This document shows positions 17,116 through 57,305 of a stretch of DNA of 64,000 nucleotides, piece after piece; position 1 is the stretch's first letter, and every line of letters begins with the position of its first letter. Below the pieces are notes generated by a model that saw nothing but the letters and a program-made list of their open reading frames with translations, ran no database searches and had not been told where the DNA came from. The DNA lies in the NCBI GenBank assembly GCA_030390025.1, contig CM059432.1, positions 82,958,001 to 83,022,000 on the forward strand, in the 5' to 3' direction. A program made the translations under genes and the position numbers. The stretch is from Squalus acanthias. Its lineage: Eukaryota.

Positions 17116-17847
17116 GGTGCAGAAATTCCGATCCCTACGGGTGTGTACGCGCTGTGTGCTCACCCGTAGGGACATCGGAAATGCCAGTTTCAGGCATGCA
17201 CTGGAAACCGGCATTTCCGATCTGTCAAGAAAGCTCTTGACAGATCCTCCGCCTGCCCGGGAGAAGGGCCTCTGCGGGAAGAGAGTTCCGCTTTTTGGAG
17301 ACCCTCCGCCCGCAGAAAACACTTACAATTCTTGCACCTGGTAAAAGCAGGTGTAAGGCCTGCTTTTACCAGGATAAGAGTTGAAAAAAGTTTTTTTTTA
17401 AATTTCCACTGATTTATTATTTAAAAATACTTTAAAGAAAGGTAAGTTTATTTTTAGCCCCGTTAAAAACTAATTTTTTTCAAAAAATAAAATTGTTTAA
17501 AATACTTAATTTATTGTAATTTAAAGTAATTTTAAAAATGTGATTTAAAAAAAAAATTTATTTAAAGTTTTACTATGTTTTGGGGGTGATCTCTTCATAT
17601 ATTTGACAGGTCTTCCTGTCAAATGTATGAAGGGAGATTCCCTTCTGATTGGCTCCCCATGGCCCACGTGATCCCAGGGACGCTGCGAACCGCCTGCGCC
17701 TCGGATACGTGGGCCCTGCACACCGGCAGTTTGGAAAGGCCCAGCAGCGGAACTCTGTGCCTTCCGGGAGCCCTCCGGTCTTGGCGCAGATTTTTCCAGA
17801 TCGCAGCCCTCCGCCCGCGGGAGCCCTGCGATCGGAATATCTGGGCC
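17116..17847. mobile_element. Hairpin-rich MITE, copy A (PIF/Harbinger-like termini)
   Basis: Imperfect TIRs ggtgcagaaattccg / cggaatatctgggcc, 3-bp TSD gac/gac, AT-rich core and multiple internal inverted repeats. Homologous to 20275 and 49823 in the opposite orientation. Confidence 0.8.
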
Positions 17848-18687: not shown

Positions 18688-18860
18688 CCTGCTCTTTTAT
18701 ATGACGGATTCGTTTCACAGTTTCTTTTAAGATTGCACATTTGTCTGGTTTTACGTTGAAGTTGTCAATGTCATTAAAATTAGCAAATATCAGCTCAGCA
18801 AGTTCTTCAATATATTTATTCTCTTGCTCACGATGACGTTTCTCAGTGCTACGTTTAGGG
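18688..18860 (-). CDS. NCOA2: NCOA2 bHLH-domain exon (173 nt)
   Basis: tttcaacag|CCCTAAACGT...GAGCAGG|gtaag. Encodes (S)[57 protein letters not shown], the p160 coactivator b[15 protein letters not shown] is NCOA2-type. Splices in frame to the phase-2 end of the 22693 exon (AG+C = Ser). Confidence 0.96.
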
Positions 18861-22692: not shown

Positions 22693-22781
22693 CTCGGTCG
22701 TGGATGGTCACATGGCGATTCCTTACGTTTTCTCGAGTCTAATCTGGCAGGGTCAGAGGAATTTTCACCCATTCCACTCAT
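22693..22781 (-). CDS. NCOA2: Nuclear receptor coactivator 2, first coding exon (exon spans 22693-22800 including 19 nt of 5'UTR)
   Basis: Minus strand reads ...ttcaccag|CTGTTTATATGTCGGCAAG ATG AGT GGA ATG GGT GAA AAT...CGA CCG AG|gtaag = MSGMGENSSDPARLDSRKRKESPCDHPRP(S). This closely resembles the NCOA2 N-terminus as I recall it ([21 protein letters not shown]), including the RKRK NLS. Canonical AG/GT sites; 89 coding nt, ending phase 2. Confidence 0.93.
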
Positions 22782-22792
22782 CTTGCCGACAT
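22778..22792 (-). promoter_or_regulatory. 4-codon uORF (MSAR*) whose stop overlaps the NCOA2 start codon
   Basis: Minus strand ATG TCG GCA AGA TGA; the TGA shares TG with the main ATG (ATGA overlap). Lies within the exon. Confidence 0.6.
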
Positions 22793-24104
22793 ATAAACAG
22801 CTGGTGAAGTTAAGAGAGATGTTTCAATTAGCACTTTACAAAAAGCACTCAACTTTCTCAGTTAGAAGTATCTGATGCCTGGTAGTTTCTGTACAAGTTT
22901 TTATGATTACCTGCTTTGGCCTTAGTACTACTGCTAATTCAGATGGTAATGTAGACACGCTCTTAACCAAAGACAACTTCAATCATTCCAAGTATTGGAC
23001 AAAATATACATAAATTACGTATAGGGTCCCCATCCCCCGCCCCATGTCATTTAAGTACTGAAAACTTTGAACTGATTGTACTTCGAGAGCAAGAAACAAG
23101 CAGACTTGGATACTAAGTCACCGAAAAGAGCCAAAAAAACACCCAGCCTAGAATCAATCTCCAAGGAGAACATAAATCAAGGCCTGAAACAGCCCAGCTA
23201 ACGCAGAAAACCCAACAGTAAATGCACTGTTGCCAGTCATTATTCACATACAATTTCACTAATCACCTCTGCCCCAAGCAAAGATGGCCACATCTTGGTC
23301 AATATTTAGCTTTCAATATGAACACAGGATTGAAATAGTTCATTCCTTTATTACTGTTCAACAACCAATTTAAATCTTATTAAAATGGCTGTGATGCAAA
23401 AGTTTTTCCCCTTTCTAGATGAAGATTTCAAATTCCCTTGTGTCCAGTATGCCGAGAATGGATCCCCGAGAGCAATCTTCTTTGTGCTTTAAATTATTCA
23501 ACTTCTAAACTGTTCACTCATTTGAGGTTTCATATAGAAAAATTGAATATCAAATAAAGCCAGTATTAACAGTTAACCATCTTAAAACTGCAGGTTATTA
23601 TAAGCCAATATAGTTTAGCCAAAATTGCATTAATGTCATGCTATACTGCAGGCAACTAACTTTGCACTAAAACTTCATTGTGCTTTAACACTCATTATTA
23701 GCATAACTTTTCAAAGTAGAGAGTAAAATTACACTATGTAGAAATATGTACTTTGATATGCATGTTAATGCTGCAGGGAGGAAAAAAGCAGAGATTTACC
23801 ACATCACAAGACACAAAAAGTGAATTCTCTGCTTAACTGTACATCAATCCTGACCATGTTTCAATGGAAATTACCTTGGGTCAGGCAAAAAGCAATTGCT
23901 TTACAAGAAACATGGTCAAAAATAATGATCTAACTCAATGAGTAGAACAAAGTGATTTCAGGTAATTGATCAAAGTGATGTGATGACAGTTCTGATCACT
24001 GCACTGCATTCTCCATGTGACAGTTTGGACAGCAAGTGTTGGTAGGCTACTTGACCAAGGGAGGTTTCAAAGCGAAGCTCAACCACGTACTCACCTTCAC
24101 CCAA

Positions 24105-25022: not shown

Positions 25023-26248
25023 ATAGATAAAGGGAGAACCAGTAGATGTGGTGTATTTGGACTTTCAAAAGGCTTTCGATAAGGTCCCGCATAAGAGATT
25101 AGCGTGTAAAGTTAAGGCACATGGGATTGGGGGCAAGGTATTGACTTGGATAGAGAACTGGTTGGCAGACAGAAAGCAGAGAGTAGGAATTAACGGATCT
25201 TTTTCCAAGTGGCAGGCAGTGACTAGTGGGGTACCGCAGGGATCGGTCCTTGGACCCCAGCTATTCACAATATATATAAATGATCTGGATAAGGCAACTA
25301 AATGTAATATCTCCAAGTTTGCAGATGACACAAAGCTGGGTGGGCGTGTGTGCTCCAAGGAGGATACCGAGAAACTCCAGGATGATTTGGACAGGTTGGG
25401 TGAGTGGGCAGAAGCGTGGCAGATGCAATATAACGTGGATAAATGCGAGGTTATCCACTTTGGTGACAAAAACAGAAAGGCAGACTATTATCTGAATGGC
25501 AATAGATTGGGAGAAGGGGAAGTGCAACGAGACCTGGGTGTCCTTGTGCACCAGTCGCTGAAGGTAAGCATGCAGGTGCAGCAGGCGGTGAAGGCGGCAA
25601 ATGGTATGTTGGCCTTCATAGCGAAAGGGTTTGAGTATAGGAACAGGGATGTCCTGCTGCAGTTGTACAGGGCCTTGGTGAGACCACACCTTGAGTACTG
25701 TGTGCAGTTTTGGTCGCCTTATCTGAGGAAGGATGTTCTTGCCATGGAAGGAGTTCAGCGAAGATTCACAAGGCTGATACCTGGGATGGCAGGAATGACA
25801 TATGAGGAGAGATTGGGTCGATTGGGCTTATACTCGCTGGAGTATAGAAGAATGAGAGGGGATCTCAGCGAAACATATAAAATTCTGACAGGTCTGGACA
25901 AACTAGATGCAGGATGAATGTTCCCGATGGTCGGAGAGTCCAGAACCAGGGGTCATGATCTAAGGATAAGGGGTAAGCCATTTAGGACAGAAATGAGGAA
26001 GAATTTCTTCACCCAGAGAGTGGTGAACCTGTGGAATTCTCTACCACAGAAGGTAGTTGAGGCCAAGTCATTAAATATATTCAAGAATGAGTTAGATATA
26101 TTTCTTAAAGCTAAAGGTATCAAGGGATATGGGGAGAAGGCAGGTACAGGGTACTGAGTTTGGATGATCAGCCATGATCTCATCGAATGGCGGAGCAGGC
26201 TCAAGGGGCCGAATGGCCTACTCCTGCTCCTATCTTCTATGTTTCTGT
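25023..26248 (+). mobile_element. Young 5'-truncated CR1 LINE (RT domain, single nonsense codon)
   Basis: ORFs 25048-25917 and 25918-26157 are in the same frame, split by one TGA; YLDFQKAFDKVPH, GVPQGSVLGP, FADDTK; tail tcttctatgtttctgtgt. Confidence 0.95.
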
Positions 26249-26401
26249 GTAAAGCAAACCCAAGGGTTACATCGAATTTACAGCACAGAAACAGGCCAAT
26301 CGGCCCAACAGGTCTATGCCGGTGTTTATGCTCCACACGAGCCTCCTCTCCCCTTACTGCATTTTACCCTATCAACATTTCCTTCTATTCCTTGCTCCTT
26401 C

Positions 26402-26645
26402 TTGATTGCCGTGATTATCTCTCTGCCGAGGTGTGATAAAGGGCAGTTGGAAAGATTAACTGTAATCATCTGGCTGTGTTCTCTGACTATATATGCTGTG
26501 CCGATATGTATCTCTTCACTTCACCTGACGAAGGAGCAGCGCTCCGAAAGCTTGTGATTTCAAATAAACCTGTTGGACTATAACCTGGTGTTGTGCGACT
26601 TCTCACATTTGTCCACCCCAGTCCAACACCGGCATCTCCACATCA
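26402..26645 (+). mobile_element. Penelope-like solo pLTR (family 1)
   Basis: Homologous to 27540-27798; ends ...ggcatctccacatca; TSD ttgctccttc / tttctccttc (26392-26401, 26646-26655). Confidence 0.8.
26521..26557 (+). ncRNA. Minimal type I hammerhead ribozyme motif
   Basis: TCAC-CTGACGA-A-GGAGC-AGC-GCTCC-GAAA-GC-TT-GTGA: intact CUGANGA and GAAA cores, 5-bp stem II, stem I TCAC/GTGA, palindromic AGCT mini stem III. Confidence 0.75.
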
Positions 26646-27086
26646 TTTCTCCTTCATGTACTTAGCTAGCTTCCACTTAAATGCATCTATGCTATTCACC
26701 TGAACTACTTCATGTGGTAGCGAGTTCCACATTCTCATCAATCTCTGGGTAAAGAAGTTTCTCCTGAATTCCCTATTGGATTTATTAGTGACTCTCTTAT
26801 ATTTATGGACCCCAGTTTTGGATTCCCCCACAAGTCTTCTCTGTTCTGGTATCATCCTTGTAAATCTTTTTTGCACCTTCTCCAGTGCTTCTATATCCTT
26901 TTTATAAAAACAACTGCGCACACCACTTTAAGTGTGGTCTAACCAAGGTTCTACATGTTTAACATTATTTCTCTGCTTTTGAATTCTGTTCCTATAGAAA
27001 TTAATCCCAGTGCTTTGTTTGCATTTTTTAGACAAAAATGAGAAGTCGCACAACACCAGGTTATAGTCCAACAGTTTTATTTGAAA

Positions 27087-27123
27087 TCATGAGCTTTCGG
27101 AGCGCTGCTCCTTCGTCAGGTAA
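27087..27123 (-). ncRNA. Minimal hammerhead ribozyme motif (sense to NCOA2 pre-mRNA)
   Basis: Reverse complement TTAC-CTGACGA-A-GGAGC-AGC-GCTCC-GAAA-GC-TC-ATGA; cores intact, stem I imperfect. Confidence 0.65.
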
Positions 27124-27673
27124 AGTGAAGGAATACAAATCAGCAAAGCATATATAGACAGAGAACAATGTGTAGCGTACAATGTCAGACGACTACAGTA
27201 AATCTTTCTGACTGCCCTCACACCTCGGCAGAGAGACAATCAGGCCAGTCAGGCAGGCATTACATCAAAGACACAGCAAAATACAGCTAAGACAATGAGG
27301 TGGGGTCACAGGGGGTCCAACGTGTCAAATGCTGCAGTCTGTATGGTTAAGCTTTTTACTTTTTTTAAAAACTGGAAATCACATCTGTGAACAAGCCAAC
27401 GACGACTCGAGTCTGGATGACTCTACGTCATGTAGCGTGACATGAAACCAAGATCCCGGTTGAGGCCGTCCTCATGGGTGCGATACTTGGCTATCAGTTT
27501 CTGCTCGATGATTTTGCTGTGTCTTTGACGTAATGCCTTCCTGACTGGCCTGATTGTATCTCTGCCGAGGTGTGATGGAGGGCAGTCAGAAAGATTTACT
27601 GTAGTCGTCTGACATTGTACGCTACACATTGTTCTCTGTCTATATATGCTTTGCTGATTTGTATTCCTTCACT

Positions 27674-27710
27674 TTACCTGACGAAGGAGCAGCGCTCCGA
27701 AAGCTCATGA
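27674..27710 (+). ncRNA. Minimal hammerhead ribozyme motif
   Basis: TTAC-CTGACGA-A-GGAGC-AGC-GCTCC-GAAA-GC-TC-ATGA, identical to the minus-strand copy. Confidence 0.65.
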
Positions 27711-28876
27711 TTTCAAATAAAACTGTTGGACTATAACCTGGTGTTGTGCGACTTCTCATTTTTGTCCACCCCAGTCCAACACCGGCATCTCCGCATCATG
27801 CATTTTTTAGGCTTTGTTAACATGTGTTGCTACTTTTAATGATTTGTGAATCTGTACCCCTAGATCCCTTTGCGCCTCTATCGCATTTAGACTCTTATTT
27901 TCCAAGGAGTAGGTCGCCTCCTTATTCCTTCTATCTAATTGCACCACCTCAGACTTATCTATATTGAAGTTAATTTGCAATTTACACGCCCATTCAGCAA
28001 GTTTGTTTTAAGTCTTGTGTTTTGTGTTGTTGTGGCTTTTAATATTGCCTCCTGATCTTAATGATTCTCCGCCTTCAACTGTATTGATTTGACTTGTATG
28101 GATACCCAAGTAAGCCAGGTTATTTCAAGTGCAAGCTAGCAGGTCAAATGTATATAATATGGTTATCAAGAGCTTTTTTCAAGCCTCTCCTGGTTCTACT
28201 AGGGAAATAAGTTTTGAGAAAGTGTGTTCCATGGATAAGAAAGGGAAACACAAGGGATCACGGTCATCTCCCAGATCCCCAGTTAAAGCTCGTAGATCCA
28301 TGTGGTAGGTGTTCTCCCGTGCAGAACTAATATCCATTTCAGAACACTGATTTTTGTTTGTTTCTGTACTTTTTGTTAGAATCAGATCTTTTGTACAGAC
28401 TTGGTCGGTGCACATTGCTGATTTCAGAAAATCTTTTGAATCCAAAAGACAGAACCACGATATCGAAGACAGACAGGTCAGGTTTTTGTACCATGTGGCC
28501 ATTGAAGAATCTTCTTACAGTTGTCTGTAGACATTGCCAATCTTAGAAATAGTTTCTGAAAATCAGCTTCTAGTTCAGGTTATTGCTGTTAATAGCACTG
28601 TATCAAACTTTTTGATGTGTACTTTAAACATGGTGGACCACCTTTTTACCCAGATTTTCAAAATTGTTATGAATGAAGCCAGAGATCCCATGTCAGTAAT
28701 GCTGCAAAATGTAGTGGTGTTGCACTGATGCTTTTGAATCATAGCAAGTCACAAATTTAACAGTAAGGATTCAACAATAGAATACTGAACAATACCATGT
28801 GGTGTTGGTTTATTCTGATATGTTGGCTTTTTCCAGAGTTGTTTTTGATCAAGTTTATTATTGACATACTAGTGTT

Positions 28877-45700: not shown

Positions 45701-46097
45701 GAATTTTGTACTCATGGGACCTACAGACAGCATCAGGCACTCCGAGGTCAGGTTTAGAAGCGAAGAGCAGAAGATAGCTCTCTGTGCACTGCTGCAACAA
45801 TGTGCTTGATCGCCAATCTCAAAATGTCCTCTGTATCACAACTATTTTTTCCATCTCCTATGGTGGCCATCCTTCTGGCTCAAGCAACATTGTCAACTTG
45901 ACACCACTTAGCACCAGTGAATTGTAGACAGTTCAACACTGTGGACTCATGTCTATTCAGACCATTAGAGCCTAGAGAGAGGAGACTTTCATTCCTTCAT
46001 TTTGAGATGGAATAAAACCCAAGTCACAGATAACAAAATATTATCCTACCACCCCCTCAATAAATGACATAAAAAAATAGCTGACATAATCAGTACA

Positions 46098-46156
46098 TGA
46101 TGCGGAGATGCCGGTGTTGGACTGGGGTGGACAACCTGGTGTTGTGCGACCTCTCA
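46098..46156. mobile_element. 59-bp PLE family 1 micro-insertion with internal inversion
   Basis: Perfect 12-bp TSD ataatcagtaca (46086-46097, 46157-46168). The insert is the last ~37 nt of the pLTR on minus joined to the preceding ~24 nt on plus. Confidence 0.85.
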
Positions 46157-46631
46157 ATAATCAGTACAGCCAGACATAACAGGTAGATACCAACAGCACA
46201 GGAAGAGTGTGTGTTCAGGTGTACCAACAGGCAAGTTATAGATCTGGCATGGCTTATGTGTACTCAAGCAACACTGGTTCAGCAAGTCATGATCAAGTCT
46301 GCATTAGGTCAGAGTTCGAGACAACACTGTCTGTCACAGAATTCCATGGGCAGCAGAGTCACCAGTGGTATTTTGCACAAATTTCTTAGTGATACTGAAG
46401 CTCAATTTCCTGAAATAAACACAAAGGTTTAGATTAAACATAGCAATTTTTTGTAGCGCTGCTATAGTTAAAACCATGTTACCTGGCTACATCTCTTCAG
46501 TGTTGGAAAGTGGGAAATACTGGCACAGTTTAGTCTAATTTTATCCACTAGTTTGTATGATTTTCAACTGCACTGACCCAAGAACAAGGGATAAGGTTTC
46601 TCTGCAGCTTTCCAGCAGGGCTACAATATTC

Positions 46632-55014: not shown

Positions 55015-56912
55015 CATAGAAACATAGAAAATAGGTACAGGAGTAGACCATTCGGTCCTTCGAGCCTGCACCGCCATTCAATGCGTTCATGGCTGAACAT
55101 GCTACCTCAGTACCCCATTCCTGCTTTCTCGCCATACCCCTTGATCCCCCTAGTTGTGAGTGTTATATCTAACTCCCTTTTGAATATATTTAGCGAACTG
55201 GCCTCAACAACCTTCTGTGGAAGAGAATTCCATAGATTCACCACTCTCTGGGTGAAAAAGTTCCTCCTCAGCTCAGTCCTAAATGGCTTCCCCTTAATCC
55301 TTAGACTGTGACCCCTGGTTCTAGTTTTCCCTAACATTGGGAACATTCTGCCCGCATCTAATTTGTCTAAACCAGTCAGGATTTTAAATGTCTCTATAAG
55401 ATCCCCCCTCATTCTTCTGAACTCCAGAGGATACAAGTTCAGTTGACCCAATCTTTCTTGATATGTCAGACCGGCCATCCCAGGAATCAATCTAGTGAAC
55501 CTTCGCTGCACTCCCTCAATAGCAAGAATGTCCTTCCTTAAGTTAGGAGACCAAAACTGCGCACAATACTCCAGGTGTGGTCTCACCAAGGCCCTGTACA
55601 ACTGCAGCATCACCTCCCTACTCCTGTACTCAAATCCCCTTACTATGAAGGCCATCATTCCGTTTGCTTTCTTGACTGCCTGCTGCACTTGCATTCCCAC
55701 CTTCAGTGACTGATGTACCATGACGCCCAGGTCTCGTTGCACCTCCCCTTTCCCTAATCTGCCACCATTCAGGTAATAGTCCGCCTCTCTATTTTTACCA
55801 CCAAAGTGGATAACCTCACATTTATCCACATTGTACTTCATCTGCCATACATTTGCCCATTCACCCAACCTGTCCAAGTCACTCTGTAGCCTCCTAGCAT
55901 CCTCCTCATTGTTCACACTGCCTCCCAATTTAGTGTCATCCGCAAATTTGGAGATATTACATTTAATTCCTTCGTCCAAATCATTAATATATAATGTAAA
56001 CAGCTGGGGTCCCAGCACCGAACCCTGCGGTACCCCGCTGGTCACTGCCTGCCATTCTGAAAAGTACCCATTTACTCCTACTCTTTGTTTCCTGTGTGCC
56101 AACCAGTTCTCAATCCACGTCAACACATTACCCCCAATCCCATGTGCTTTAACTTTGCTCACCAATCTCTTGTGTGGGACCTTGTCGAAGGCCTTCTGAA
56201 AGTCCAAATACACAACATCTACTGGTTCCCCCCTGTCCACCCTATTGGAAACATCCTCAAAAAATTCCAGAAGATTTGTCAAGCATGATTTCCCTTTCAC
56301 AAATCCATGCTGACTTGGACCTATCATGTCGCCACTTTCCAAATGGTCTGTTATGACATCTTTAATAATTGCTTCCATCATTTTACCCACGACCGATGTC
56401 AGGCTGACCGGTCTATAATTCCCTGCTTTCTCCCTCCCTCCTTTTTTAAAAAGAGGGGTTACATTGGCCACCCTCCACTCCATCGGAACTGATCCAGAGT
56501 CTAAGGAATGTTGGAAAATGATCGTCAATGCATCCACTATTTCCAAGGCCACCTCCTTAAGTACTCTGGGATGCAGACCATCAGGCCCCGGGGATTTTTC
56601 AGCCTTCAGTCCCATCAATTTCCCCAATACCTTTTCCCGACTAATAAGGATTTCCCTCAGCTCCTCCCTCTTACCAGATCCTCTGACCCCTTTTATTTCC
56701 GGCAGGTTGTGTGTGTCCTCCACAGTAAACACCGAACCAAAGTACTTGTTCAATTGATCTGCCATTTCCTTGTTCCCCATTACGACTTCCCCTGTTTCCG
56801 ACTGCAGGGGACCTACGTTTGTTTTTACTAACCTCTTTCTTTTTACATATTTATAGAAGCTTTTGCAGTCCATTTTAATGTTCTCTGCAAGCTTCCTTTC
56901 ATATTTTATTTT
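55015..56912 (-). mobile_element. Young 5'-truncated CR1 LINE with uninterrupted RT ORF
   Basis: ORF 55107-56936 (609 aa): KSPGPDGLHPRVLKE, NYRPVSLTS, QHGF, YLDFQKAFDKVPH, GVPQGSVLGP, FADDTK; tail ttttctatgtttctatg; possible TSD cattt. APE domain absent. Confidence 0.95.
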
Positions 56913-56994
56913 CATTTGTACTTCTAAGCATATCACAAATATACAATTTTTACTTGTACAGCAGTTAATGTATCATTTATGTTAGTTATAAAAT

Positions 56995-57305
56995 TGAAAA
57001 ATTGGAGCTAAAACATTTGTTTAATTTTGAGTAGCTCTAAGGACTGGATCTACAGAAGGGTACTATTGATTCTATCCACTTTAACATTTAGTTAAACTTT
57101 TGATATGCAGATTTAAGGATCAGGCCACTCAAGACTACTGTGATGCAACAGAACTGGTGTCTGTTGGAGAGTTTTAAAAAGCTAACTACAAAAGTTAACT
57201 ATCACCATTTTAAAGTGGATAGGATCCATCCTAGCACCCTGTCTGTAGATCTAGTCCTTCTAGAGATACTCAAAAGTAAACAAATGCTTTAGCTCCAATT
57301 TTTCA
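56995..57305. repeat. Imperfect inverted repeat, about 110-bp arms with 86-nt spacer
   Basis: tgaaaaattggagctaaaacatttgtttaattttgagta... pairs with ...tactcaaaagtaaacaaatgctttagctccaatttttca. Confidence 0.85.

Follow-up and report, generated by a model that had tools for sequence, protein, structure and literature searches.

The window (the whole 64-kb stretch of DNA analyzed) carries coding exons of NCOA2 on its minus strand. The bHLH exon (18688–18860, −) matches Pfam bHLH_NCOA, and a protein search with it gave 1319 matches; among the best 120 listed, the top 37 are 98–100% identical, 35 of these are named NCOA2, and all with a stated organism belong to cartilaginous fishes. A PDB sequence search with the same exon returned 0 matches. 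The first coding exon spans 22693–22800 (−), with its acceptor at 22800 and the ATG at 22781. Most of the top proteins (35/37) begin at the Met of 22781, while the other two have N-terminal extensions that part from the window sequence at the acceptor, indicating that the first coding exon is internal; no credible match to these two extensions was found upstream within the window. Vertebrate NCOA2 has long 5′-UTR introns. The element described below lies 4.2 kb upstream of the first coding exon, on the 5′-UTR side and before all coding exons, and from the acceptor at 22800 we infer that it occupies a 5′-UTR intron, unless transcription starts in between. An earlier reading of the sequence alone had placed it in an intron of NCOA2: gene and strand hold, and the intron, judged from the acceptor, is probable. 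None of the 64 1-kb bins stood out as a CpG island; five exceed an observed/expected ratio of 0.55, and the one of these above 50% GC lies at 10–11 kb, downstream of the exons. Sequencing data were contigs from 4 of 20 runs. Contigs of run X10, RNA by guess, reach a depth of 2.9 in the bin that holds the first coding exon and leave the adjacent unique bins uncovered, a gap that is no evidence either way; the upstream splice partner is not seen in these contigs. Papers are cited here by accession or DOI, and what is said of them refers to the available portions of their text. About 43% of related hammerhead repeats are intronic in Xenopus (10.64898/2026.07.22.740005), so an intronic site is not unusual.

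The insertion near NCOA2 is a genuine but ordinary leftover of a common Penelope-like element (PLE). It is 767 nt long, 5′-truncated, carries an inverted pLTR, and interrupts a decayed CR1 LINE fragment (26667–28007, −), which was delimited by tblastn and by DNA alignment to the CR1 copies of the window. Identical 12-mers bound it at 27020–27031 (+), where the sequence is part of the CR1 LINE, and at 27799–27810 (+). These are the only two occurrences in the 64-kb window, both on the plus strand, and the chance expectation of such a match is 6e-5 (800 offset pairs). With one 12-mer copy retained, the joined flanks align to two other CR1 copies in the window with a gap of 1 nt; with both copies retained, 11 nt of gap are needed. 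The one-copy flanks thus restore a collinear CR1, making the 12-mer a true target site duplication (TSD), as had been claimed. An empty-site joint (27031 to 27811) is not among the 15 joints listed of 1240. Two young CR1 copies are also present at 55107–56972 (−) and 25027–26157 (+), the first of which retains a 621-codon open ORF2 frame.

Between the TSD copies, the element consists of two inverted arms, a spacer, and a single tail. The left arm (27032–27282, −) is the sense pLTR and element 3′ end, and stops before the tail; the right arm (27511–27766, +) is an inverted, 5′-truncated pLTR. Alignment of 27031–27282 with 27511–27766 gives 97.27% identity over 256 columns, with three substitutions and one 4-nt indel, in line with the inverted arms of about 250 bp reported before. 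All four differences fall within the 63 innermost positions of 252, with no difference in the outer 189 nt (P about 0.004, post hoc). A simple priming model does not explain this clustering; arm conversion, the use of two templates, or repair near the center are possible causes. Arm divergence is only 1.2%, from which the insertion is young. The PLE tail, as defined in PMC8557442, comprises 32 nt at the right end only (27767–27798, +); the element is therefore asymmetric, its left arm lacking this tail. Each arm contains an AATAAA 14 nt after the GAAA box of its hammerhead motif: that at 27716–27721 (+) lies in the right arm, and that at 27076–27081 (−), in the left arm, is sense to NCOA2 and buried in the predicted duplex.

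The spacer (27283–27510) is 228 nt long and, as proposed from sequence, probably includes a GIY-YIG C-terminus: its minus-strand ORF end matches shark proteins with reverse transcriptase (RT) and GIY-YIG domains. It comprises the 3′ untranslated part of the element, forming the hairpin loop (27283–27422, −), and the last ~30 codons of the RT/GIY-YIG ORF (27423–27517, −; stop codon 27425–27423), which run into the first bases of the inverted arm. Twenty-six family contigs from run X1 track the window to 27517 and then run on into the ORF, while the inverted arm begins at 27511. The joint therefore contains 7 nt of microhomology (27511–27517, complement at 27276–27282) common to the ORF and the inverted arm.

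Searching proteins with 40 residues of the spacer ORF gave seven matches among 11 candidates, including the shark RT and GIY-YIG proteins. Six of the seven are 75–87% identical over the last 27–36 aligned residues, and the seventh is 46% identical over a longer stretch. The 643-residue protein P0003 of Heptranchias perlo, 84% identical to the ORF end of the element over 32 residues, carries RVT_1, a CX4CxxC linker, and a GIY-YIG-like motif. A CX2-5CxxC linker before GIY-YIG is a Neptune feature, common to Nematis (PMC8557442), so the P0003 architecture points to Neptune; the linker is present in three of the seven matches (P0003, P0006, and P0007), and the corresponding region is missing from the element copy. 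The family is very probably an endonuclease-bearing (EN+) PLE, a group in which pLTRs may be direct or inverted, and, judging from the linker motif in its protein relatives, it probably belongs to the Neptune clade. Inverted pLTRs, one-sided tail, TSD, and ORF end all fit the Penelope-like identity originally assigned. A Pfam search with the spacer peptide, which covers only the C-terminal ~30 codons, gave no match. A literature search, the coverage of which excluded most subscription papers, returned no paper on Neptune PLEs in shark genomes.

The family is very abundant: summed contig depth in run X1 reaches 3e5–8e5 in the bins of the element, compared with 12–19 in unique bins, a summed depth that is not a copy number. 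Run X18 contains the orthologous flanks, but its depth is only 278 in bin 27123–27323, a weak hint that the subfamily is younger than the split. Two of the seven protein matches, P0001 and P0002, are predicted Heptranchias isoforms (FAM204A X2 and XRCC5 X2) that both end in the endonuclease C-terminus of the family, which suggests that the family is common in shark introns. P0006 fuses a Pyrin domain to the same C-terminus. These three endings possibly reflect last-exon exonization, or are annotation artifacts. A protein scan of metagenomes gave three loci among 54 candidates, at 29–31% identity, that are not of the PLE family found here, and pattern scans of viral, metagenome, and prokaryote collections gave 0 loci. 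Assignment to the non-LTR retrozymes, defined as tandem type I hammerhead units without a coding remnant (10.64898/2026.07.22.740005), was rejected, given that the element is inverted and keeps an ORF end.

Two further copies of the family were found in the window, and the 32-nt tail is present in both, at 26.4 and 46.1 kb. A third pLTR copy with tail (26397–26646, +), missed by the sequence-only reading, sits 385 nt to the left of the element. Its hammerhead motif (core 26525) is antisense to NCOA2 and has four Watson–Crick pairs in stem I. This solo pLTR has a possible 7-bp TSD at 26395/26649 and is 82% complementary to the left arm. Its hammerhead and that of the right arm are in direct orientation 1153 nt apart, so that an antisense transcript would contain two. 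The other copy is a miniature insertion (46086–46168, including a perfect 12-bp TSD of its own), the 59-nt body of which (46098–46156) joins an antisense tail to a tailless sense pLTR end, the joint showing 2 nt of microhomology as judged by eye. It repeats the one-tailed, inverted layout and the 12-bp TSD of the main element. In both insertions the tail stops at the same base, and the TSD next to it starts with TG, possibly representing 1–2 nt of priming microhomology.

A scan of both strands of the 64-kb window for hammerhead motifs gave five candidates, three belonging to this family and two being long, weak motifs. The left-arm motif (27087–27123, −; core start 27119, predicted cut 27091/27090) is sense to NCOA2, and the right-arm motif (27674–27710, +; core start 27678, predicted cut 27706/27707) is antisense; the two are identical. 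The claim of a hammerhead core followed by AATAAA in each arm is borne out by these positions, as is that of a minimal type I hammerhead with a palindromic stem III. Both motifs have CUGANGA and GAAA boxes, U16.1, an H17 that is not G, an extra base between positions 9 and 10.1, G10.1-C11.1, and a palindromic 15.2-16.2. An alternative register, in which the next U would be 16.1, was dismissed by eye because it places G at position 17. Helix II comprises 5 bp. Helix I is reduced to three pairs, one a wobble, plus a mismatch at 2.1-1.1: from 2.1-1.1 to 2.4-1.4, the pairs are C.A, A-U, U.G, and U-A in both arms, and C-G, A-U, C-G, and U-A in the third copy. A helix I of 4–5 bp closing beside the cut site is therefore absent from both arms and present in the third copy. 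G at 1.1 is found in two family contig joints (2 of the 12 rows listed), in agreement with the third copy; position 27707 is not among the 40 variant rows listed of 283. Three of the 15 joints listed end at 27708, one base past the predicted cut. They may stem from truncation at the cut site or from the way the 27706–27707 mismatch affects alignment, and are not read as cleavage.

The arm motifs are best called damaged minimal hammerheads (min-HHRs), and the suggestion that they are working ribozymes is not supported. In a constrained model of the active dimer, the arm motif scores −10.5 kcal/mol and the third copy −20.7 kcal/mol, so that the modeled active dimer of the arms is some 10 kcal/mol weaker; free co-folding favors another structure by 10–13 kcal/mol in all three pairings. 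Minimal PLE hammerheads did not cleave as monomers and cleaved poorly as dimers (PMC4209133), and in engineered trans-acting hammerheads mispairing of the base that follows the cut site slows cleavage at least 500-fold (reviewed in PMC3138052). By analogy with those engineered ribozymes, the stem I flaw would probably cripple cleavage, an effect that protein help in vivo might offset. The two arm motifs lie on opposite strands and so cannot dimerize within one RNA. Flawed beside the cut site and predicted to be zipped shut in the RNA, both are most likely inert. The two arms share the stem I flaw, which was therefore probably already in the template, later conversion between the arms being the alternative source. 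A flawed template is compatible with insertion, since hammerhead cleavage is dispensable for insertion in vitro (PMC11167929). Covariance models did not support the hammerhead assignment: Rfam scans of the region, of the right-arm motif, and of the third copy matched no hammerhead family at E ≤ 10. That the third copy is also missed means that this result says little, and min-HHRs were originally defined with a relaxed descriptor (PMC4209133).

The minus strand of the element is predicted to fold into one long duplex of −559 kcal/mol (z = −37.6 against 20 shuffles), in which the sense hammerhead and its AATAAA pair with the opposite arm with a probability of at least 0.997. These values come from an equilibrium model, and they agree with the earlier proposal of a hairpin that would hide both signals. 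Transcription of NCOA2 reaches the right arm before the left arm, and the latter can therefore zip onto it during synthesis. Because the remaining two family hammerheads are antisense to the gene, the sense motif has no cis partner in the 64-kb window. Of the 45 inverted pairs of at least 100 nt in the window, the element is the tightest (97%, 228-nt gap); only two reach 90% identity and ten have a gap below 5 kb. Inverted pairs of 72–76% identity are also found in NCOA2 introns at 17126–17847/20275–20995 and 6368–7352/9420–10455, the former flanking the bHLH exon in a layout that can favor exon circularization. A self-complementary (73%) element of ~310 nt at 56995–57305 is MITE-like.

Taken together, it is very probable that one fairly young retrotransposition placed a head-to-head double copy into an old CR1 upstream of the NCOA2 coding exons, with the hammerheads as passengers lacking a host function. 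In the proposed mechanism, the target would be cut with a 12-nt stagger, and each of the two free target ends would then start reverse transcription close to the 3′ end of the element RNA, in one case at the end of the tail and in the other 32 nt further in. The resulting two cDNAs, of about 290 and 490 nt, would join through seven complementary bases, and the hammerheads and AATAAA signals would travel along within the pLTR. Both ends of the insertion are element 3′ ends, one with tail and one without. In vitro, the PLE protein of the anole cuts and extends both strands, and its two RT start sites bound the tail (PMC11167929). Combined with the two 3′ ends, these start sites make two-end priming the simplest reading. 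A literature search for twin priming in Penelope elements returned nothing relevant; most subscription papers lay outside its coverage, so publication is still possible.

The main alternative is that the cDNA, or an antisense template, primed itself to give a longer palindrome, the center of which was later deleted between the 7-nt microhomologies. Self-priming is the published proposal for inverted PLEs, in which microhomology deletions are also reported (PMC3846280); it accommodates the microhomology at the joint, and repair near the center of a palindrome could explain the inner clustering of arm differences. However, the joint retains no palindrome, and fold-back of the left cDNA alone could not produce a tail that the left arm lacks. 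The 59-nt insertion would moreover require both steps with only 2 nt of microhomology, and the extension of both strands in vitro (PMC11167929) also speaks against it. Fold-back with later deletion gives an identical sequence, and the case for two-end priming draws on two insertions; two-end priming is held to be the probable route, with self-priming a credible one of lesser probability.

As to the fate of the RNA, only the left hammerhead would be sense in NCOA2 pre-mRNA, with no sense partner in the 64-kb window, a mismatched stem I, and a position zipped into a duplex of ~250 bp. The RNA would likely be neither cleaved nor polyadenylated early; the duplex would undergo incidental A-to-I editing, as other inverted repeats do, and leave with the intron. 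Editing of the duplex is likely by analogy: hyper-editing is heavy in elephant shark brain, and self-folding repeats are strong ADAR targets (PMC5625713). A>G and T>C changes number 22 and 16 in X10 and 21 and 16 in the DNA run X1, counts that are dominated by other copies and uninformative on editing.

Read-through of NCOA2 might instead supply double-stranded RNA from which Dicer makes siRNAs against the pLTR. In Drosophila with Penelope, siRNAs map exactly to inverted regions (PMC3681739), and a near-perfect duplex of 250 bp is predicted here. The element would, however, be one of many copies contributing to such silencing, which is considered improbable at this locus. Vertebrate intronic duplexes are mostly nuclear ADAR targets, which also argues against it.

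A regulatory role is less probable still. Here the hairpin would act as an NCOA2 switch: editing or unwinding would release the sense hammerhead or AATAAA, and the transcript would be cut or terminated ahead of the coding exons. The unmatched tightness of the inverted pair, the heavy hyper-editing in elephant shark brain together with the strength of self-folding repeats as ADAR targets (PMC5625713), the two predicted RefSeq isoforms of other shark genes that end in the family ORF (P0001 and P0002), and the conserved intronic hammerheads of amniotes (PMC6155905) are points in its favor. Against these stand the damaged stem I, the lack of a dimer partner, and the near-complete predicted pairing, as well as the youth of the insertion and its status as one copy of a very abundant family. 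That the assembly collapsed or mis-joined a repeat here is hardly credible: inverted PLEs are known to trouble assemblies (PMC8557442), and none of the 32 contig pieces listed (349069 more exist) spans an element–flank joint by at least 31 letters on both sides, but the perfect TSD restoring a collinear CR1, the arm-specific differences, the microhomology at the joint, and another insertion built in the same way all speak against an artifact.

In itself the locus carries little weight, since the element is very common, its layout is published, and its ribozymes are probably dead. It is nonetheless a clean specimen, in which TSD, tail, joint microhomology, and a miniature twin within one window allow priming models for inverted Penelope insertions to be compared. 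A broader and distinctly tentative proposal, considered rather unlikely, is that two-end priming combined with self-masked signals would make inverted copies tolerated in introns in either orientation while solo sense pLTRs are purged, and that such self-folding copies would be a main source of edited double-stranded RNA in sharks. The three insertions of the window (n = 3) fit self-masking: the solo copy, whose stem I is intact, is antisense to NCOA2, the sense hammerhead lies in a duplex, and the miniature copy has neither signal. If inverted copies do escape intronic selection by hiding processing signals, insertion geometry would be tied both to the genome-wide distribution of transposable elements and to the RNA editing load of sharks.

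The closest known systems are the complex PLE insertions described by Craig et al. 2021 (PMC8557442) and Arkhipova et al. 2013 (PMC3846280; Pen2a_Av and Pen2_Av). As in these, a 5′-truncated copy adjoins an inverted pLTR, a tail (30–40 bp there, 32 nt here) is found at one end only, the target is another retroelement, and microhomology is present at the 5′ joint. The TSD is 9–10 bp in the rotifer insertions (PMC3846280) and 12 bp in the shark element. Unlike the published insertions, the shark element keeps only the last ~30 codons of its ORF, has a 228-nt asymmetric spacer in place of a palindrome at the joint, and resides in a cartilaginous fish. The Poseidon element PAc of Anolis carolinensis (Frangieh et al. 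2024, PMC11167929) likewise has two RT starts bounding the tail, with both strands cut and extended, and its pLTR hammerhead depends on protein help and is dispensable for insertion. PAc belongs to another clade, the shark relatives carrying the CX2-5CxxC linker, and the available text of PMC11167929 contains no model of inverted insertions.

The arm motifs resemble the min-HHRs of PMC4209133 in their core boxes, the extra base between 9 and 10.1, G10.1-C11.1, the palindromic 15.2-16.2, and the lack of a stem III of their own; they differ in their 5-bp helix II and in a helix I of three pairs with a wobble and the 2.1-1.1 mismatch. Pairs of min-HHRs 100–700 bp apart on opposite strands are already described there, in a text the available part of which names no sharks. 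A long, near-perfect duplex within one repeat copy is likewise a feature of the Xenopus Harbinger ADAR target (Porath et al. 2017, PMC5625713) and of the Drosophila Penelope inverted arms that give rise to siRNAs (PMC3681739), the shark duplex being a predicted one. The insertion layout, the ribozyme type, the opposite-strand hammerhead pairs, and both RNA fates are thus already published; the novelty here is confined to the present copy, the damage to its stem I, and its miniature twin.
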